A stretch of DNA of 64,000 nucleotides, taken from a virus (taxonomy: Duplodnaviria > Heunggongvirae > Uroviricota > Caudoviricetes). Location of the stretch: the IMG/VR virus record IMGVR_UViG_2713896908_000007. The stretch is one strand, 5' to 3'. Made by a program: the position numbers and the translations under genes. Positions within the stretch are counted from its first letter, which is position 1, and every line of letters begins with the position of its first letter. The notes below the pieces were generated by a model that was given only the letters and a program-made list of their open reading frames with translations, made no database searches and had not been told where the DNA came from. Of the stretch, positions 12,249 through 29,009 are shown piece after piece.

Positions 12249-13114
12249 TTAAGTTAATTCTTTCAGCGCCAGTACATGAAATGGCTGAAGCATTTAAGCG
12301 GGTATTCGCAAATGCAGATAATGTGGATGTTGTAGAAAAAACATTTGAAGCAATCCCGGAATTTGACTGCATGGTCAGTGCGGCAAACAGTTTCGGGCTA
12401 ATGGATGGCGGCGTTGACGCTGCCATTACTGCATTCTTTGGTACTCAGTTACAGACACGTGTTCAGAATCATATTCTTCGTGAATATCTTGGTGAGCAGC
12501 CTGTAGGCACTGCATTTGTTATTGAAACGGGGGATAACAACCATCCCTGGCTGGTACATGCGCCAACAATGCGCGTTCCGCTGACCATTGACGGAACAGA
12601 CGCTGTATATAACGCCACGTGGGCTGCTTTACTTGCCATCTTTCAGCACAATAAAAATGCAACGACAGACAGGAAAATAAAGACGGTGGTATTCCCTGCA
12701 ATGGGGGCCGGATGTGGTCAGGTGCCGTTTGAAAGTGTTGCCCGGCAGATGAAGCAGGCATGGGATAACTTTAATAAAAAAACAGAAGCAATTAACTGGG
12801 AATACGCACACTCCCGCCAGTTGGCAGTATTTAATACATGCGCGTACTGCCCGGGTACTCCTGTTTGTCGTTATGCGGATATTAAATATATTGGACTTGG
12901 CGATTACCGGACGTATTGCTTACGGTCGGGGCAGGTATGCATTAATCCTGAACATCAGGTTGATGACGTGCTGACTAATAATCGTTCTCGCCCGGGGGCG
13001 CATATGCATCAGATTAATCCGGTAAAATCCGTAGGTAATATTGCCATTGGCGCACACAGCCACGGAAGGAATATCACCATTGGTGCTCATTCCCATACCC
13101 CACATAAACAATAA
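12245..13114 (+). CDS. macro-domain protein with tail-fibre-like Cys-rich and IGAHxH C-terminus
   Basis: 289-aa ORF, ATGA overlap with fibre gene stop; macro signatures [40 protein letters not shown]-terminal GAHMHQ…IGAHSHG…IGAHSHTPH. Confidence 0.7.
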
Positions 13115-13138
13115 TTCTTTCTCTGATTAGAGGTGAAA

Positions 13139-13717
13139 ATGACTTTCAGAATGAGTGCTGAAGCACAAACCATTCGCGTATTTAATTATCTCGATGGTAC
13201 AAATGAATTTATTGGAGAAAGTGATGCCTATATTCCACCACATACAGGGCTTCCGGCAAACAGCACAGATATTGCTCCTCCTAAGATTCCAGCTGGTTTT
13301 GCCGCTATATTCGACACAACCCGAAACTTATGGAATTTAATAGAGGACCATAGAGGAAAAACTGTTTATCACACTGAAACAGGTGACGCTAAAACTATAT
13401 TTAAATTAGGCGCTTTGCCTGAGGATGTTACGTGCATTCCTCCTGATGATGAGTATCAGAAGTGGAATGGAAATCAATGGGTTACAGACGATGAGGCGAA
13501 GCATCAAGCTCAGATAACCTATGCAAACTCAAAGAAAAATGAGTTGTTAAAGCACGCAAGCGTAGAGATAGCGATCTTACAAGATGCTGTTGATTTATGT
13601 ATTGCAACAGATGAAGAGAAAGTTTTATTAAATGAATGGAAAAAATACAGAGTGCTTGTAAATAGGTTAAATGAAGATGACATCATTCAAATGAAAGTCC
13701 CTGAAATACCAGTTTGA
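13139..13717 (+). CDS. tfa: tail fibre assembly protein (lambda Tfa / P1 U family)
   Basis: MTFRMSAEAQTIRVFNYLDGTNEFIGESDAYIPPHTGLPANSTDIAPP… closely parallels lambda Tfa; ATG 13139 preferred over track GTG 13133. Confidence 0.9.
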   Translation: MTFRMSAEAQTIRVFNYLDGTNEFIGESDAYIPPHTGLPANSTDIAPPKIPAGFAAIFDTTRNLWNLIEDHRGKTVYHTETGDAKTIFKLGALPEDVTCIPPDDEYQKWNGNQWVTDDEAKHQAQITYANSKKNELLKHASVEIAILQDAVDLCIATDEEKVLLNEWKKYRVLVNRLNEDDIIQMKVPEIPV

Positions 13718-13733
13718 TTTATATATTAATAAG

Positions 13734-13770
13734 CCACTGTTGACAGGACTGTTTTACAGTGGTTTGTTTT
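13734..13770 (+). terminator. rho-independent terminator of tail-fibre operon
   Basis: Stem ccactgt/acagtgg followed by tttgtttt. Confidence 0.6.
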
Positions 13771-13771
13771 A

Positions 13772-14920
13772 TTATCCAAACCAATTTTCTAGAACATTTT
13801 CAAATTTATGGGTAACTTGCCACCATAAATAGTTCTCTAATACATATTTCTTTCCGTTATTTGCAATTTGTTCTAATTTTTCGGAGTGTAATGTTTCATA
13901 TATATCACTAGCTAAACTTTCTGGCAACATTGGTTCATTTATATGAAATCCTGTATGGTTATTTTTTACAAATTCAACCATTCCACCTCGAGTGCTAACT
14001 AAAACGGGTTTTCCTGCCCCCATAGCTTCTATAGCAACCATGCAGAACGGTTCTTGAAACTGAGATGGGATTACAACTAGATCGGCTATAGGATAGTAAC
14101 GGTACATATCATCTGGTTTTACCCCGCCAACAAGATGACAACGCGAACCAATAGTTCCAGCAAGTTCCCTTACTTGTTTTTGATATGCAGCTTTTTCTCC
14201 TTTATCTTTATTATTGTAGTCACCAACAACTACAAGTTCTATATTGTCACATGATTTTATCAATTTTTTAAACGCTTGTAATAGTAAAACAGTCCCTTTT
14301 TCAGGGGAGATCCTTCCCGCATAAAAGATAACTTTTTTCTCAGAGGGAATGCCTAAATCTTGTTTTGTTAGCGGGGGTAGCCCTTTATCTAGATTGTGTG
14401 GTTCTGTACCATTAGGAACTATACAAATTTCAGCGTCAGGAAGATGTTTTTCATAAAAATCCTTTAAATACTGACTTGGAACAAGCATTTTCACATTGCT
14501 ATCTAGCCCTTTCGGTGTAAAGGCATTATGCATATGCATTATCATTTTTGCGTCAGGAGCTTTCTCTCTAATTTGACGATAAAGTTTCATGCTGTTATGA
14601 ACAATAATAATGCTATCGTTTGTGATATTGAAATCTTTAGCAATGTTTAACACTCGTTGTGAATATGGAATAGGATCTATTCTGCTCCATTTTTGAAATA
14701 TCCGTTTATAAAGACGGCTAAACCCTATTCTATGGATAGAGCATCGCTCATTAACAATATCTTTTTCTGAGAAACCATCCTCTCGAATGCATGCTATACG
14801 ATTTGGTATTCTTGTTCTCTTTGCGACTTGATATATCCAAGTTTCAACAGCTGCTGCGCCACGAGGTGGTATTGAAAATATTGGTGTAACTGTAAATATT
14901 AATTTGTCAATCATGAGCAA
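13772..14920 (-). CDS. GT4-family (GT-B) glycosyltransferase
   Basis: 382-aa ORF; C-terminal EX7E-type motif region …VSTRGGMVEFVKNNHTGFHINEP…; AT-rich codon usage; TTG start overlapping upstream gene. Confidence 0.8.
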   Translation of the reverse strand: MLMIDKLIFTVTPIFSIPPRGAAAVETWIYQVAKRTRIPNRIACIREDGFSEKDIVNERCSIHRIGFSRLYKRIFQKWSRIDPIPYSQRVLNIAKDFNITNDSIIIVHNSMKLYRQIREKAPDAKMIMHMHNAFTPKGLDSNVKMLVPSQYLKDFYEKHLPDAEICIVPNGTEPHNLDKGLPPLTKQDLGIPSEKKVIFYAGRISPEKGTVLLLQAFKKLIKSCDNIELVVVGDYNNKDKGEKAAYQKQVRELAGTIGSRCHLVGGVKPDDMYRYYPIADLVVIPSQFQEPFCMVAIEAMGAGKPVLVSTRGGMVEFVKNNHTGFHINEPMLPESLASDIYETLHSEKLEQIANNGKKYVLENYLWWQVTHKFENVLENWFG

Positions 14921-15458
14921 CTATCCTCTTATAATCTTTTTCCTTTAAATGTTTTTTTGGGGTTGCGGGAGAGCCCGCATACATTGTATTAGCAGGAACA
15001 TCAGTATTTACAACGCTATTTGCAGCTATAACACTATTGTCTCCTATTTTTACACCTGGTAGCACAGTTGTATTTGCCCCAATCCAAACATTACGGCCTA
15101 TTTTTATTGGAGCGCAAATTGTTTCTTTGGGACGTTTGCTTGGTGTTAGTGGATGCGTGACAGTTGTTAATACAACGTTGGGGCCAATGGCAGAGTTACA
15201 TCCAATATCTATTGTTTTTGCATCGAGAAAAACACAATTTGCGTTAATGAAGACCTTTTTATCAATAATTATATTGCCATTCTCAAAATAAAATGGAGCT
15301 GTTATTGTTGAGTCTTCACTTACTTTAACTCCTGTTTTTTTTAATGTGATTAATTTTTTTCTTTTTGAGATCAAGGTATAATTAAATATATGTCTTGCTT
15401 TCTTTGCTTTCTTTTTTTGAAAAATTATATAGAAATAATATGTTAGCAAATCAAACAT
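14907..15458 (-). CDS. hexapeptide-repeat (LbH) sugar O-acetyltransferase (maltose/galactoside acetyltransferase family)
   Basis: …IGCNSAIGPNVVLTTVTHPL…IGRNVWIGANTTVLPGVKIGDNSVIAANSVV… hexapeptide repeats; Lys-rich N-terminus encoded by A7-A8 tracts. Confidence 0.8.
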   Translation of the reverse strand: MFDLLTYYFYIIFQKKKAKKARHIFNYTLISKRKKLITLKKTGVKVSEDSTITAPFYFENGNIIIDKKVFINANCVFLDAKTIDIGCNSAIGPNVVLTTVTHPLTPSKRPKETICAPIKIGRNVWIGANTTVLPGVKIGDNSVIAANSVVNTDVPANTMYAGSPATPKKHLKEKDYKRIVAHD

Positions 15459-19735: not shown

Positions 19736-20839
19736 TTATTCCCACTCTTGCAGGAAACGCTGACCGTACTGGTCGGCTACCAGCAGTGCAGCATAAACCT
19801 GATCTGGCGTTGCGCCGCCAGGCATGTTGTGGATGGTTTCACCTTCTGCACATGCCGCTTCTGCGACAATCCGCATTTTCGCCGGGATATCTTCTTTAAT
19901 ATCCAGTTGTGCCAGGGTAATTGGCAGGCCGACAGCATGGCACAGCGCAGCTACGGTTTCGATTTCTTCAACTGGTGCGTTTTCCAGAACCAGTTGCGTC
20001 AGCGTACCGAATGCCACTTTCTCACCGTGATAATAGTGATGCGCATCCGGAATGGCCGTCAGGCCATTGTGCACCGCGTGCGCCGCCGCCAGGCCGCCGC
20101 TTTCAAAGCCCACGCCGCTCAAATAGGTGTTAGCTTCAATCACACGTTCCAGCGCCGGAGTCACCACATGCTGTTCAGCGGCAAGCATCGCTTTTTCGCC
20201 TTCTTCCAGCAGGGTGTTGTAGCACAGTTCAGCCAGAGCCAGTGCTGCCTGAGTACATTTACCGCCCGCCATCGTGGTTGCGCCGCTGCGGGAACAGGCA
20301 CGTGCTTCAAACCAGGTTGCCAACGCATCGCCAATACCCGCCGCTAACAGACGTGCAGGTGCGCCAGCAACAATTTTGGTATCCACAATGACGCGTTCCG
20401 GGTTGTTTGGCAGCATCAGATAACGTTCAAACTCACCATCATCGGTGTAGATAACGGAAAGGGCGCTGCAAGGTGCGTCGGTTGAGGCAATGGTTGGGGC
20501 AACTGCAACAGGAACGCCCATAAAGTGTGCCAGTGCTTTGGCTGTATCGAGGGTTTTACCTCCGCCGATTCCCAGAATTGCGCTACACTGAGCATTCTCT
20601 GCAATACCCCGCAGACGATCGATTTCATTTTGCGAACATTCACCGCCGAACGGGGCAATTTCTACCTCTATTCCAGCATCTTTAAAACTTTTCTCAATAT
20701 TAGTTTGAGCAAAACCTAACACAAATTTGTCACCTACCACCAACCAATGTTCTGCCAGCGGTTTCAGGTATTCACCCAGGCGATTAATGACATCTGCGCC
20801 TTGGATGTATTTACCCGGTGATTGAATGATGCGGTCCAT
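19736..20839 (-). CDS. gldA: glycerol dehydrogenase (iron-containing alcohol dehydrogenase family)
   Basis: 367-aa ORF; N-terminus [30 protein letters not shown]… as in enterobacterial Gld[12 protein letters not shown] nucleotide-binding motif; AAAGGAG RBS; host-like GC content. Confidence 0.9.
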
Positions 20840-20910
20840 AATTGCTCCTTTAGAGATGAGTTATGCTAAATGTTTTGTTATTCCCGGATGACCTTCTGTA
20901 TATATCTTAA

Positions 20911-20929
20911 GTCAACATTATAAGTTGAC
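20911..20929. promoter_or_regulatory. perfect palindrome GTCAAC-N7-GTTGAC upstream of gldA
   Basis: 6-bp inverted repeat with 7-bp spacer, about 75 bp upstream of gldA start; candidate regulator-binding site. Confidence 0.3.
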
Positions 20930-20989
20930 GCCAATATTCCGTAGAAGAGATGTTACTTCGCGAGCAGTATGACTCCATAGGTTTCTGAG

Positions 20990-21008
20990 ACGTTACTTTG
21001 CATATGAT
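20990..21008 (+). promoter_or_regulatory. candidate late promoter (ACGTTACTT-N4-TATGAT)
   Basis: 9-bp inverted-repeat motif plus -10-like hexamer about 135 nt upstream of the 562-aa ORF; a second weaker copy (ATGTTACTT) at 20950. Confidence 0.45.
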
Positions 21009-21142
21009 ATTGCTGAGGCAAATACATTCAATGCCGCATTTTTGTGAGATTTTAAGCCAATCTACATCACCATTAGGTAAGAGTATCTTTTTTTGGTGGT
21101 GATGGCGCAATGTATCAGTGGACAGCATAAGGTGTAACAGGG

Positions 21143-22831
21143 ATGTGTTTGAACGATCATACAGTTATGGCCACCAGCAGCGGCTACATCGGTGTGGCAC
21201 CGTATACCCGCTTGCTATTACATCAGGCATCCGGCATCAAAGATATTATTCACCTGATCAGGCTGCTTTCCCGTACAGATCCCCAGGATGAACAGCTTGT
21301 TCAAGTGCTTGCGCATTTTGTCCGAATGCCTGTTGCCGACGTGAAAAAATGGTGCCGATTATTCGGTATCAGCAATTCGTTACTTCGCGGATTGTTAAAT
21401 CACGCATCCTCCCTTGGGCGCGACGGATTTGATGAGATAGCGCAGGCGATAAAAAACGGAGATATGCCACCAGCTATTGACTGGTTTTCCATTCGCCCAA
21501 CCAGGGTGAAAGCATTCCTTAGTGCGGCGCAATCAGCATCACCATTGGCAGAAATGGTTCAGAGGTTGTCGCTCATATTCACAGATCATACCGCGTTCGG
21601 TGATCTGGCTCTGGACGAGATGAAAGAAGCCTCCATTCAGTGGGCCGCTCAACAAAATGAGGTTAACTCAGACTTCTTGCCAGCATTCAGGAAGGCCGTT
21701 AGTAAAGCGGATGATGCCCGTGGAATTCTGAAGGCATTTAAGGCATTGCAAAGTCGGGTTAATAAACATGTCGGTGATATCGATGGGGTAACGGCGGAAG
21801 GCAGGGATATCCTTAAAGAGCACGGCATAACGCCAGAGTTTATTGATGAGATCAGGACGGATATGCAGCGTGAGGTCGTATCGTCCCTGCAAATTGTAGC
21901 CAGAGCGTTGGCGGATGCTAATCCGAAGAGTGCGGCCATTGTTAACCGGGTTATTGGTGATATTGAAGCATCGGAGGGCATGGGGGCGCTGAAACTCTTC
22001 CTTTCGCGAGCGTTTAATCCTAACGGCAATATTCTCCCTGGCATTATTGGTGAGGCTAAAAGGTATGTCAGTGAAGAAGAACTTGAGCAGCTTGACCAAC
22101 TACTTAAGCGATTCTCATATAACCCGCAGACACGCTGGCAAATGAATCAGCGAAGTATGGGTTCGGTCCACGAGAAAGTGTTATCTGCCATGAACAGTGC
22201 GATCGCAAACTCATCCGTATCTGAAGAAAAAGCTCTTGAGTGGGCCGACTCTTTTATCACGGAAGAAGTGGAAGAAGCCCGCGCTGGACAGAATGGTGGG
22301 ATAGACCTGCGCAAGGAACTTGCTGATATTTATCGCCTGACCGGCGGTAAAATTTCGACCCTATCAAAGATAATTCACCACCAGGGAAGGGCATATGCAA
22401 ATCTTAATGGTATTGTTGCTGTCAATTTGAACGATGAAAATGCAAGCGCACTGTGGCACGAGCTTGGTCATCATCTTGAGTACAGTAACCCTGGTCTGTT
22501 AGAGAAAGCCAGGTCATTCCTGAAGGCCAATGTTGAAGGGGATAAGCCATCTTTCGTTAATATCGGTGGGCGTGGTAAACCTGAATGGTGCTTCAGATCT
22601 CGATTGAGTAATATTTATATGGCGAAGGTATACCCGCCAGCCTCAGTGAGTAACTCCGGGAAAATTCGGCAGAAAGCACCGACTATTTCCAAAACGTCAG
22701 CAACGGAAGTATTCTCTATGGCTCTTCAGTTGTATCATGACAAAGAGGCCGCTGCCGCATCACTGATGAATGGTGACGGATTGCTGGAACTGTTATTAGG
22801 TGTGGCAAAGGAGCTAAATAATGCAGATTAA
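21143..22831 (+). CDS. hypothetical protein with HExxH zinc-metallopeptidase-like motif (possible P1 DdrB counterpart)
   Basis: 562-aa ORF; …NASALWHELGHHLEYS… HExxH motif; own late-type promoter. Confidence 0.55.
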   Translation: MCLNDHTVMATSSGYIGVAPYTRLLLHQASGIKDIIHLIRLLSRTDPQDEQLVQVLAHFVRMPVADVKKWCRLFGISNSLLRGLLNHASSLGRDGFDEIAQAIKNGDMPPAIDWFSIRPTRVKAFLSAAQSASPLAEMVQRLSLIFTDHTAFGDLALDEMKEASIQWAAQQNEVNSDFLPAFRKAVSKADDARGILKAFKALQSRVNKHVGDIDGVTAEGRDILKEHGITPEFIDEIRTDMQREVVSSLQIVARALADANPKSAAIVNRVIGDIEASEGMGALKLFLSRAFNPNGNILPGIIGEAKRYVSEEELEQLDQLLKRFSYNPQTRWQMNQRSMGSVHEKVLSAMNSAIANSSVSEEKALEWADSFITEEVEEARAGQNGGIDLRKELADIYRLTGGKISTLSKIIHHQGRAYANLNGIVAVNLNDENASALWHELGHHLEYSNPGLLEKARSFLKANVEGDKPSFVNIGGRGKPEWCFRSRLSNIYMAKVYPPASVSNSGKIRQKAPTISKTSATEVFSMALQLYHDKEAAAASLMNGDGLLELLLGVAKELNNAD

Positions 22832-23126
22832 AATCGCAGCGCCATTAGGCGGAGATGCAATTATCGAATTTGATGATAATGAAGAAGTTTCCGGGCGTTT
22901 AAGCATTATCTCCGGTGACATTACCGAGGACATGATCGCTGAAGCCATAGCTGGAGCAAATCCCAATAGCTATATGGGATTCGTTAACTCCCTTGATGCT
23001 CCCGCAAGCGATGTTCTCCGAACGCTGCATCTTTACGCTGGCTGGTTTGTTGATTGGCCAGCAGTAGAGGGTGGCGATGAGGACGACGATGATTTCGGTG
23101 ATAATATTAATCAGATTATATTTTAA
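22821..23126 (+). CDS. small acidic protein
   Basis: 101-aa ORF overlapping the upstream stop (coupled); C-terminal EGGDEDDDDFGD acidic tail. Confidence 0.5.
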   Translation: MQIKIAAPLGGDAIIEFDDNEEVSGRLSIISGDITEDMIAEAIAGANPNSYMGFVNSLDAPASDVLRTLHLYAGWFVDWPAVEGGDEDDDDFGDNINQIIF

Positions 23127-23285
23127 CCCATATGAGATATAATCGTTCTAATGGCATAAAGTTAGATTGTTCTTATATTCGACTTTGTGCCATCATTAGG
23201 ACTAATCATTTAGGGGTTCTTTTAGGTAGAAATTTAGCAATACATGTTTAGTATGGCAATATTTTCTAAAGGAGTTAGGTAAAAA

Positions 23286-24164
23286 GTGAAAAGAATTATT
23301 CCTGATAAAAAATGGTTAAAAGAAGAAAGCAGTAAGCGACAAGTGCCATCAGAATGTCCCTATGCAAATTCATATCGATGTCCTAGATATCACGAAAGTG
23401 TTATTTTGTTCTCACAGATGCAAATGATTGATGGCATGTCATATAATAAAGAGAAGGAGTTGAAACAGTTCTGGGAGAGAACCGACCTCTCTTCTTTATG
23501 TAATGGAGAAACCCCGTTGGTCTCAAAAAATGATAAAGGCGGGATTTTCTCTATAGATAATTTCTGTCCAGAAATATCGTTTAGATATTTAGGTTACTAT
23601 GCAGACTATATGCTGAGATACATTGATGAAGATGCTCACACTATAGGGTATGGCATAGCTAAAAGAGATCAGAAAGAAAATGATTGGAAGTATGATTGGT
23701 CCGAGGTCAATGCTGTTTTCTATGAGGATTGTTACCTCTTTGAGAGAGTTAAACAATTCAATAAAGAACTTCATGATAGTTTCTTTAAAAGACTACATCC
23801 GAATATTGTAATGCAAATAAGTAGAATGGATAAGTGTTTGGACTCAAATGACCCAACCGGTGTTTTGCATGCGGCATCTAATATTCTAGAAACAATGGCT
23901 AAAGAAATATTAGATGATCCAAATGTATTAAATAAATCGTTTGGCTCTTTTTTTGAGAAGTTTAAAAAAGAGTCAAAGTTGCCGTTAGGGTTTATTAATG
24001 CAGTTAAAGATATTTATGACTTACGTAATAAAATACCTACTGCTGGTCATGGGGGGGTGGGGATGCCTGGGTTATCTTTATCTGATGCCATAATGATTGC
24101 TGCATCAACAAAGGCTATTGTAGAGATTGAGTACAGAAACATTGATGTGGCTGCTATTGATTGA
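23286..24164 (+). CDS. AT-rich accessory ORF, possible HEPN/Abi-like abortive-infection protein
   Basis: 292-aa ORF, GTG start with AAAGGAG RBS; markedly AT-rich versus flanks; N-terminal CPYANSYRCPRY Cys motif; C-terminal …DLRNKIPTAGHGG… R-x7-H motif reminiscent of HEPN/Abi_C. Confidence 0.5.
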   Translation: MKRIIPDKKWLKEESSKRQVPSECPYANSYRCPRYHESVILFSQMQMIDGMSYNKEKELKQFWERTDLSSLCNGETPLVSKNDKGGIFSIDNFCPEISFRYLGYYADYMLRYIDEDAHTIGYGIAKRDQKENDWKYDWSEVNAVFYEDCYLFERVKQFNKELHDSFFKRLHPNIVMQISRMDKCLDSNDPTGVLHAASNILETMAKEILDDPNVLNKSFGSFFEKFKKESKLPLGFINAVKDIYDLRNKIPTAGHGGVGMPGLSLSDAIMIAASTKAIVEIEYRNIDVAAID

Positions 24165-24204
24165 GCTAATATAGCGAGGTTCCTTTTTGTATCGTTCGAA
24201 TTAT

Positions 24205-24222
24205 CCCCGCCTGTCGGCGGGG
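24205..24222. terminator. GC-rich stem-loop between convergent genes (possible terminator)
   Basis: ccccgcc-tgtc-ggcgggg; no clear U-tract on either strand. Confidence 0.35.
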
Positions 24223-24228
24223 TATAAC

Positions 24229-25011
24229 TTAATCACTTTCTACCTCTTCCGTTGAGTTTTCCAATGCTGCGCGACACAATTTCCTGGCATTGGTTATAGC
24301 CACACTTTTTACCTCATCCGTCATTGTACAGGTAATGTACTGATCGAGTTCTTCAGCTCGGATGATGCTTTTCCCAATCATAAACTCTATTTGCCAGAGC
24401 AGATCGGCATCCATCGTCAGTATTTCAGCCTGGCCTTCTGGGCCTGCGGGGAAGCAAACATAAGACTGTTTGCCCAGGCCGATAACTCGACAACTTGCTT
24501 CAAGAATTGCACGCTTGAGGTCTGACTTTGTAACTGAAACAGGTTGATTTTCACCTGTGATTACGCCGTTGGCATGGACGTGGAAGGGCATGTAGCTTGA
24601 AATTCGCTCTACTTTCCATACGCCAGCAAGCGATCCTTCATGCAGCACAATGGGGGTAACCGCGAGTTTCATCTCACCATATAACTGCTGGCAGATAGCT
24701 GGATTGCTGAATACATCCAAAGGTTCACACTCAAACAGCGGTGCAATCTGCATGAGGTCCATCATGGTCATACCAGGGGTACGAGCAGTAATGAATCTGC
24801 GCATTCCAGTATCCATTGTGCGCCAGATAGCTACACCATGCTTTTTGCTCACTTCTTCAGTAAAGCCAAGGTGGCACATGATGGTTTTTTCGATAGCCAG
24901 ATCAGAGATAGAAACCTTTTCGCCTGGCACGCCATCATTATTGATGGTCACTTCGACACTCTGGCCATTACGTAGGCGGTATTGAATGGTTTTAGTATTT
25001 TGTGCTGTCAT
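24229..25011 (-). CDS. hypothetical protein (P1 IsaA-like by position)
   Basis: 260-aa ORF downstream of ssb on the same strand. Confidence 0.55.
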   Translation of the reverse strand: MTAQNTKTIQYRLRNGQSVEVTINNDGVPGEKVSISDLAIEKTIMCHLGFTEEVSKKHGVAIWRTMDTGMRRFITARTPGMTMMDLMQIAPLFECEPLDVFSNPAICQQLYGEMKLAVTPIVLHEGSLAGVWKVERISSYMPFHVHANGVITGENQPVSVTKSDLKRAILEASCRVIGLGKQSYVCFPAGPEGQAEILTMDADLLWQIEFMIGKSIIRAEELDQYITCTMTDEVKSVAITNARKLCRAALENSTEEVESD

Positions 25012-25716: not shown

Positions 25717-25733
25717 AAATTAATTAGAGCAAT
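25717..25733 (-). promoter_or_regulatory. C1 operator (AAATTAATTAGAGCAAT)
   Basis: 16/17 match to ATTGCTCTAATAAATTT in reverse orientation, 20 bp upstream of ssb start. Confidence 0.6.
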
Positions 25734-27734: not shown

Positions 27735-29009
27735 TATATTGCCCTCCAGCTACCTTACCTAATGTCTGTTGGTATATTGGCTTTGATAACATTTTCGTCC
27801 GTGTATTCATTTATATACTCATTAGTTTCAATGTATTATATAGAACATGAAGCGTGCCTATAAATATCGATTCTATCCAACTCCCGAACAAACCGAGCTA
27901 TTAGCCCGGACTTTTGGGTGTGTGCGTTTTGTCTATAACAGCCTCCTTCGCTGGCGTACCGATGCATACTACGCACGCCATGAGAGGGTCGGCTATGCAC
28001 AAGCCAGCGCCAAATTAACGGCACTGAAAAAAGAACCAGAATTCGCTTGGCTGAATGACGTTTCCTGCGTCCCCCTCCAGCAGTCTCTGCGCCACCAACA
28101 AACGGCTTTTGCTAACTTTTTCGCCGGGCGTGCTGCATACCCAGTTTTTAAGAGCAAGCGGCATAAACAGGCCGCAGAACTAACTGCCAGCGCATTTAAA
28201 TACCGTGACGGCAAGCTGTACATGGCAAAGAGCAAAGAGCCGTTAGATGTTCGCTGGAGCCGTCCGTTGCCGTCTGCTCCATCCACTGTCACTATCACCA
28301 GGGATGCTGCCGGACGATATTTTGTATCCTGTCTCTGCGAGTTTGAGCCTGTATCACTGCCGATCACCGTTTCCACGGTCGGCATTGATATTGGTTTAAA
28401 AGATTTGTTCGTCACCGATACCGGTTTCAAAACTGGCAATCCTCGACACAACGCTAAATACGCGAAGCGATTAGCAGTGTTACAGCGCAGATTGAGCAAG
28501 AAACAAAAAGGCTCAAAGAACCGCGCCAAAGCACGTTTAAAGGTTGCCCGCCTCCACGCGAGAATAGTCGATTGTCGGATGGATAACCTGCATAAGTTGT
28601 CCCGCAAACTGATTAACGAAAACCAAGTTGTTTGCGTCGAATCCCTTAAAGTGAAAAACATGATCCGTAACCCGAAGCTGTCTAAAGCAATAGCTGACGC
28701 AGGCTGGAGCGAACTTGTACGCCAACTCCAGTACAAAGGAGAATGGGGTGGACGTAGCATTGTCGCTATCGACCAGTATTTCCCTTCTTCCAAACGTTGC
28801 AGCAGTTGCGGCTTCACCATGCAAAAAATGCCTCTTAATATTCGTAAATGGCACTGCCCGGAATGTGGCGCAGAGCATGATCGTGATATTAACGCGGCCC
28901 GTAATATAAAAGCTGCCGGGCTGGCAGTGTTAGCCCTTGGAGAGTCTGTAATTCCTAAGCCGCTTCATGTGGTTTAGGTCGGACTCTGTGAATTGGGAAT
29001 GTTTGCCGT
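27735..29009 (+). mobile_element. IS200/IS605-family TnpB-only element (boundaries approximate)
   Basis: Single tnpB ORF in opposite orientation between two co-directional head genes; no tnpA; ends not resolved. Confidence 0.4.
27847..28977 (+). CDS. tnpB: TnpB (RuvC-like RNA-guided nuclease of IS200/IS605 family)
   Basis: 376 aa; OrfB N-terminus MKRAYKYRFYPTPEQ…; RuvC motifs GIDIGLKD, ESLKV, CPECGAEHDRDINAARNI with CxxC…CxxC zinc finger. Confidence 0.9.
   Translation: MKRAYKYRFYPTPEQTELLARTFGCVRFVYNSLLRWRTDAYYARHERVGYAQASAKLTALKKEPEFAWLNDVSCVPLQQSLRHQQTAFANFFAGRAAYPVFKSKRHKQAAELTASAFKYRDGKLYMAKSKEPLDVRWSRPLPSAPSTVTITRDAAGRYFVSCLCEFEPVSLPITVSTVGIDIGLKDLFVTDTGFKTGNPRHNAKYAKRLAVLQRRLSKKQKGSKNRAKARLKVARLHARIVDCRMDNLHKLSRKLINENQVVCVESLKVKNMIRNPKLSKAIADAGWSELVRQLQYKGEWGGRSIVAIDQYFPSSKRCSSCGFTMQKMPLNIRKWHCPECGAEHDRDINAARNIKAAGLAVLALGESVIPKPLHVV

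Follow-up and report, generated by a model that had tools for sequence, protein, structure and literature searches.

We analysed a 64,000-nucleotide stretch of a Caudoviricetes virus (IMG/VR record IMGVR_UViG_2713896908_000007; hereafter the window), focusing on an open reading frame (ORF) of 292 amino acids (aa) at 23286–24164 on the plus strand (the end coordinate counts the stop codon). The window is a P1-like phage-plasmid: its ddrB-hxr…isaA-ssb-lyz region is 96–97% identical to phage P1, and the Escherichia albertii plasmid pEA16-1_1 shows 100% identity to the window. The ORF encodes WP_029791854.1, a ‘hypothetical protein’ in every source, and the accession WP_029791854 was not found in the literature searched. 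A first-pass annotation had described the gene as an AT-rich, compositionally foreign single-gene island at the site where P1 carries IS1. The GC content is 0.354 in the ORF, 0.308 in the 159-bp upstream spacer (23127–23285, plus strand) and 0.355 in the complete insert, compared to 0.472 for the whole window, and only 2.45% of 879-bp segments equal the ORF in AT-richness. In a blastn comparison to P1, homology ends at 23127 at the hxr stop codon and restarts at 24222, just past the isaA stop codon. Therefore, 23128–24221, an AT-rich insert of 1094 bp, replaces 1704 bp of P1 containing isaB and IS1, and the island is indeed located at the IS1 site. The slot that it fills is flanked by hxr (22821–23126, plus strand) on the left and isaA (24229–25011, minus strand) on the right, both assigned by blastn against P1. 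The last ~25 bp of hxr are unlike those of other P1-like elements, and the left recombination junction is therefore placed there. In the window and its siblings isaA encodes 260 aa, versus 320 aa annotated in P1, probably because of another choice of start codon or a 5′ difference. The ORF itself starts with GTG; this start is credible because it aligns with the starts of all homologues, several of which have ATG, and because AAGGAG is present at 23269–23274.

The C-terminus had been proposed to resemble HEPN/Abi_C effectors, with an arginine and a histidine at a longer spacing. A first structure model, based on a 25-sequence alignment, was poor (predicted local distance difference test, pLDDT, of 62); a second AlphaFold model, based on 136 sequences including the family and its N-only and C-only relatives, reached a pLDDT of 90.4. 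When compared to the PDB using Foldseek, the top seven hits were all HEPN domains, with probabilities of 0.91–1.00, so that an effector fold was recovered as proposed. HEPN domains are four-helix up-down bundles that often contain an insert between helices 2 and 3 (Anantharaman et al. 2013, PMC3710099). In the model, the C-domain (aa 166–292; 23781–24161, plus strand) consists of helices 172–186, 190–209, 234–249 and 265–291, with an insert at 219–229 and a loop at 250–264, and in helix order and motif positions the prediction agrees with the published description. Across sequences 34–49% identical to that of the window, N173, R180, E202, K206, F222, R247, P251, H255 and G256 are invariant, and the motifs read E-T-[ML]-A-K and R-N-x6-H-G. 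The acidic residue that HEPN domains carry in helix 2 as E-x3-[KR] is found here as the invariant E202-T-M-A-K206 (23889–23903, plus strand), which sits in model helix 190–209. R247 lies at the end of helix 234–249, which R247-N248 closes, and H255 lies in the following loop (motif region 24024–24053, plus strand), matching the R-N…H arrangement of HEPN domains. Both residues noted in the first-pass annotation are thus invariant and separated by seven positions, a spacing that is constant in 111 C-domains. As modelled, the C-terminal domain has a HEPN fold in which the catalytic-type residues are invariant and in canonical positions.

In a homology search we found approximately 29 clusters of full-length relatives (44–73% identity, ~288 aa) in Pectobacterium, Serratia, Hafnia, Salmonella, Vreelandella, Shewanella and Vibrio. 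When 1.84 billion cluster representatives were searched with a profile, 576 hits were obtained, and in a local hmmsearch of 177 sequences, 30 contained both domains, 119 only the C-domain and 28 only the N-domain. The protein is built of two independently shuffled modules. Elsewhere, the C-domain is combined with WD40 propellers, pentapeptide repeats, an AAA_16 ATPase or AbiJ_NTD4-like regions, and is placed at the C-terminus or at times at the N-terminus. NCBIfam returned only noise for the window protein (an aldolase, E about 0.04), profile searches against PDB sequences found a relative of neither domain, and the viral structure library BFVD gave nothing meaningful.

The N-terminal alpha/beta domain (aa 1–163; 23286–23774, plus strand) belongs to a family of at least 589 clusters, in which residues ~1–160 contain the invariant positions W10, C24, C32, C94, P95, E96 and C149. 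The cysteine motif that had been pointed out near the N-terminus corresponds to C24 and C32, two of four invariant cysteines (codons at 23355, 23379, 23565 and 23730), and the domain is probably metal-binding. A counterpart was not found in Pfam, PADLOC or the PDB, and a fold match was absent from the Foldseek PDB hits listed. In other proteins the N-domain precedes a TIR_2 domain, a CAP12/Pycsar-type TIR matching the PADLOC candidate system PDC-S35, a single transmembrane helix with or without additional sequence, or short tails of ~40 aa. In a census of 187 N-domain proteins, a biased sample, 44 contained HEPN, 49 a transmembrane segment, 66 short tails and 3 TIR, while 20 were bare. This domain architecture suggests that the N-domain is presumably a sensor or regulatory module. 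Most common in the N-domain family are the short forms, which have a ~40-aa tail or a single transmembrane helix, and a ~40-aa tail with a conserved KPxFxG[IV]...W ends many of these proteins (P0116, P0124, P0132, P0146, P0172 and ~30 more).

The closest architectural precedent is AbiJ (Abi-859), in which a conserved C-terminal HEPN domain is joined to interchangeable N-terminal domains that are also paired with TIR and other effectors (PMC3710099); its own mechanism is still unknown (PMC13064643). The window protein shows the same arrangement. It is of similar length (292 aa, compared to 282 aa for AbiJ), ends in a HEPN domain that contains R-N...H-G and E-x3-K, carries a variable N-domain that pairs elsewhere with TIR and other effectors, and is a single-gene unit in mobile elements. 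In addition, weak matches to Pfam Abi_C (PF14355) and to the PADLOC AbiJ model cover the motif region. Below the Abi_C gathering threshold of 24 bits, matches were found in 13 of 25 family members (best E 4.4e-4). Among the relatives, P0004 scores 20.7 bits and P0231, an E. coli fragment of a close relative named ‘abortive infection family protein’ by NCBI, scores 23.7 bits, whereas the PADLOC AbiJ model matches the C-domain protein P0040 (E 9e-4). These sequence links to AbiJ are concordant, if weak. The differences from AbiJ and Abi_C are the scores below the Pfam threshold, the R-H spacing of seven and an N-domain that has four invariant cysteines and lies outside AbiJ-NTD1-5: in HMMER searches neither the window protein nor its N-only relatives matched these models, and AbiJ_NTD4 was found only in P0029, the N-terminus of which differs. 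Thus, the C-domain is best regarded as a HEPN family that borders on Pfam Abi_C without being part of it, with a distant likeness to AbiJ.

Homologues were found in several contexts. In Vibrio cholerae, the homologue P0021 is a single-gene superintegron cassette between 140-nucleotide repeats. Cassettes of the V. cholerae chromosomal integron have been shown experimentally to encode anti-phage systems, among them Taranis and Esos (bioRxiv 10.1101/2024.07.02.601686). Compared by description only, these are likewise small single-gene systems in integron cassettes with Abi_C-/HEPN-like domains; the N-terminus of Taranis, in contrast to that of the window protein, is reported to be AbiJ_NTD5-like. 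P0021 was found on only 6 contigs and is therefore probably not the N16961 allele. On P2-like prophage contigs from IMG/VR, the homologue is flanked by the replication gene gpA and the portal gene, an interval that is a validated P2 anti-phage hotspot (PMC9122126). In a Salmonella prophage it follows a tail-fibre assembly gene, beside DUF4145 and GT4-conflict genes; in Serratia it adjoins Gabija-like genes; and in Pectobacterium and Shewanella it is found in islands with an integrase or resolvase, an integrase being present in the Pectobacterium island. N-domain-only proteins also adjoin Gabija-like genes or sit in mobile regions. The GC content of the gene is 0.33–0.35 in all hosts, including a Serratia locus at GC 0.55.

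No neighbouring gene was kept across the homologue contexts, and the gene is therefore an autonomous unit. As conserved partners, we rejected a DUF4145 neighbour, which is confined to one Salmonella/Serratia block of 96.6% identity, and a 217-aa neighbour confined to the prophage contigs of P2 type; apart from these, the genes downstream show no relationship to one another. Both of these neighbours are HEPN-type proteins: the 217-aa protein carries KVRNCIVHANG (R-N-x4-H; L033, 5117–5770, minus strand) and the DUF4145 protein has 232 aa (L005, 9181–9879; L012, 9176–9874). The adjacency of HEPN genes to the homologues may be functional or may reflect crowding in hotspots.

The island DNA was not found among 50,697 phage records. 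It is present in 4 PLSDB plasmids from E. albertii, E. fergusonii and E. coli, and in 5 of 5426 complete E. coli genomes, on plasmids every time. In a large assembly collection, the index lists the exact protein for 484 blocks, and each context inspected was the same hxr/gene/isaA/ssb locus. Of the PLSDB plasmids with this backbone segment only 4 of 511 carry the island, which shows that the gene is not part of the conserved P1 backbone. The suggestion that the locus is a variable spot was borne out when the hxr/isaA locus was surveyed in P1-like elements, which hold several unrelated cargoes or none. Between the two conserved anchor genes we found an empty slot (29 bp, the terminator alone), a 364-aa unrelated gene, the HipA-family toxin YjjJ, or isaB and IS1, and thus a cargo hotspot. 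In some elements isaA is replaced too, and the slot then holds an anti-phage dGTPase or an OmpC/NmpC porin. Like the P2 (gpA-gpQ) and P4 prophage hotspots (Rousset et al. 2022, PMC9122126), the slot is a short locus with two conserved anchors and a high turnover of cargo including defence genes; unlike these, it also holds non-defence cargo (OmpC, IS1). A description of the P1 hxr/isaA slot as a defence hotspot was not found in the literature searched. The gene travels by itself among phage-plasmids, prophage hotspots, integron cassettes and defence islands, and behaves as a mobile single-gene cassette in defence hotspots.

In the wider hxr-ssb interval of P1-like elements (L003, L016 and others) an anti-phage dGTPase, YjjJ or OmpC is encoded, and one sibling carries a Tad2-like gene of the anti-Thoeris family between isaA and ssb (L031, 9727–10428). 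Therefore, defence and anti-defence cargo share this neighbourhood. The present gene also points to the hxr/isaA interval of P1 as one to mine for more cargo.

Taking fold, motifs, modularity and genomic contexts together, we propose with moderate confidence that the 292-aa ORF is a horizontally acquired, self-contained, AbiJ-type single-protein abortive-infection or exclusion gene carried as cargo by a P1-like phage-plasmid. In the mechanism that we infer, the four-cysteine N-domain, which probably binds a metal, would keep the HEPN nuclease inactive and would answer a cue from an infecting phage or another mobile element. Activation would probably involve HEPN dimerisation, as in other HEPN RNases, and the activated domain would cut cellular RNA, which might be tRNA, rRNA or mRNA. 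Translation would then halt and the cycle of the invader would be aborted, from which the lysogen population and the resident phage-plasmid would gain. In mechanism, the nearest precedent is HepS (PDB 9oik), encoded by the Gifsy-1 prophage of Salmonella, which is triggered by the siphovirus tail tip protein J and cleaves tRNA anticodon loops (PMC13043305). Unlike the window protein, HepS lacks the four-cysteine N-domain, and sequence similarity between the two was not detected.

Several observations weigh against this proposal. The window protein has no match in PADLOC or PHROGs, its own Abi_C match (residues 235–280, 13.9 bits, E 0.06) is sub-threshold, and the consensus of the wider C-domain family does not match Abi_C. 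The R-x7-H spacing lies outside the R-x4-6-H definition, and catalysis is lacking in some HEPN domains (PMC3710099). A role of the N-domain as sensor is read from domain architecture only, and because of its invariant glutamate and a DEID patch the N-domain could be an enzyme in its own right. The gene would also have to escape triggering during the lytic cycle of the host phage-plasmid itself, and, judged from sequence and model, the family is a candidate for an abortive-infection role only.

As an alternative, the protein could serve as an addiction or stabilisation toxin, with the HEPN RNase killing or arresting cells that lose the phage-plasmid, or acting against competing plasmids or P1-like elements, so that it would help to maintain the element and not to defend against phages. 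However, a candidate antitoxin was not found: an MNT gene, a conserved neighbour, upstream tandem repeats and an Rfam hit are all absent. An MNT-HEPN pair is not formed, as the neighbours hxr and isaA have no Pfam hit on record. Likewise, the organisation of type III toxin-antitoxin systems (AbiF and AbiQ-ToxIN, with AbiV recently assigned), in which an antitoxin RNA adjoins the toxin gene, classically in the form of upstream tandem direct repeats, was not observed; we rejected a type III antitoxin since tandem repeats were not found in 22800–24400, and an Rfam RNA since the scan of the island gave no match. Moreover, the gene has also been taken up singly into an integron cassette and into integrated prophages, and in these settings plasmid addiction plays no part. 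We therefore regard a role in addiction as unlikely and retain abortive infection or exclusion as the favoured function.

The signals around the ORF bear on a second alternative. The first-pass annotation had assigned the gene its own AT-rich promoter region and a GC-rich stem-loop after it, both as parts of the foreign island. The upstream spacer is AT-rich as stated, whereas a promoter was not supported: the sigma-70-like match at 23151–23179 is weak and no better than chance. Approximately 110 bp upstream are common to the Salmonella, P2-like and Pectobacterium copies; the upstream region of the window differs, and an upstream region common to all copies was thus rejected. Control by the P1 C1 repressor was rejected as well, since no C1 operator was found in the island and the nearest one, Ossb at 25717, lies outside. 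The stem-loop was confirmed as a hairpin, CCCCGCC-TGTC-GGCGGGG, at 24205–24222 between the convergent ORF and isaA; the 86-nucleotide region around it folds with −25.1 kcal/mol (z = −3.0), and a T-run follows on neither strand. Its foreign origin did not hold. In an empty-slot relative a bidirectional terminator, TCCCGCC-AATC-GGCGGGA followed by T8, separates the convergent hxr and isaA, and by this comparison the window hairpin is the positional counterpart of the backbone terminator; the hairpin as part of the foreign DNA was therefore rejected. Relatives that carry different cargo have it on the minus strand, right of the terminator, whereas in the window it is on the plus strand, to the left.

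The ORF is co-oriented with hxr and there is no terminator between the two; in empty-slot relatives the terminator directly follows hxr, and here the hairpin follows the cargo gene. This organisation would fit a gene that is expressed through read-through transcription of the late dar/ddrB-hxr operon and that serves the phage life cycle or counter-defence, cleaving host RNAs (shut-off) or defence RNAs during lytic growth. Such a role also finds some support in the anti-defence cargo of the region in relatives, namely the Tad2-like gene in L031, and in the dar antirestriction operon upstream. However, homologues occur outside phages, in an integron cassette and in chromosomal islands, as well as in anti-phage hotspots that are already established, the architecture fits Abi-type proteins, and the gene, being carried by so few of the backbone plasmids, is dispensable for the life cycle. 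A role in the phage life cycle or in counter-defence is decidedly improbable for these reasons. That the HEPN domain is catalytically inactive, acting as an MtlR- or sacsin-like binding or regulatory factor or persisting as a decaying remnant, is very doubtful: the R-H spacing is non-canonical and the HEPN domains of MtlR and sacsin are among the structural matches, but more than 100 divergent C-domains all keep R, N, H, G, E and K, families without catalysis have lost the motif (PMC3710099), and the identical protein recurs in the 484 assembly blocks.

Each of these alternatives fits the contexts and the conservation less well than an abortive-infection or exclusion gene. It is already known in principle that a swappable N-domain can be joined to an AbiJ-type HEPN domain in a hotspot of mobile elements. 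In the libraries and literature searched we did not find the N-domain with its four cysteines, the R-x7-H spacing in fixed form, or the P1 slot described as a hotspot for cargo. We tentatively suggest, as a possibility, that the N-domain is an undescribed and widespread module that senses infection or has a regulatory role, perhaps depending on a metal or on redox state, and that gates at least three unrelated classes of effector (HEPN RNases, TIR domains and membrane helices), and that the hxr/isaA slot is an unrecognised hotspot for defence and anti-defence genes. If active, the protein would extend the Escherichia repertoire by a single-protein abortive-infection system of HEPN type that is carried on a phage-plasmid, and would offer an experimentally tractable entry, in E. 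coli and a P1-like element, to a large uncharacterised N-domain family common to HEPN, TIR and membrane effectors. Finding the cue of the N-domain would explain many ‘hypothetical’ genes of defence islands.

Other features of the window were noted as well. Within 19736–22831, P1 homology starts only at 21185, and a chromosomal-type gldA (glycerol dehydrogenase; 19736–20839, minus strand) is located upstream. The ddrB ORF of the window (21143–22831) encodes 562 aa, versus 995 aa in P1 and sibling plasmids, and this gene of the antirestriction operon therefore appears to have been truncated by an insertion. A gene encoding a 376-aa RNA-guided endonuclease of the TnpB family (IS200/IS605 OrfB) is inserted at 27847–28977 (plus strand) between the head genes pro and prt; in sibling P1-like elements a TnpB gene is found elsewhere, between ddrA and ddrB.

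At the tail-fibre locus, a 289-aa ORF (12245–13114, plus strand) begins at the end of the 1172-aa tail-fibre ORF. In NZ_CP117651.1 it is annotated as macro domain-containing and lies between the tail-fibre and tail-fibre assembly genes, a location that is unusual for a domain of the macro type (ADP-ribose-binding or -hydrolase). The only other stretch of the window that is comparably AT-rich, at 13772–15458 (minus strand), comes just after the tail-fibre assembly gene; GC is about 0.33–0.37 over ~13000–15300. It encodes a 382-aa glycosyltransferase-like protein and a 183-aa hexapeptide-type acetyltransferase (annotated as DapH/DapD/GlmU-related), and may represent a second cargo slot filled by a cassette for surface modification or conflict.
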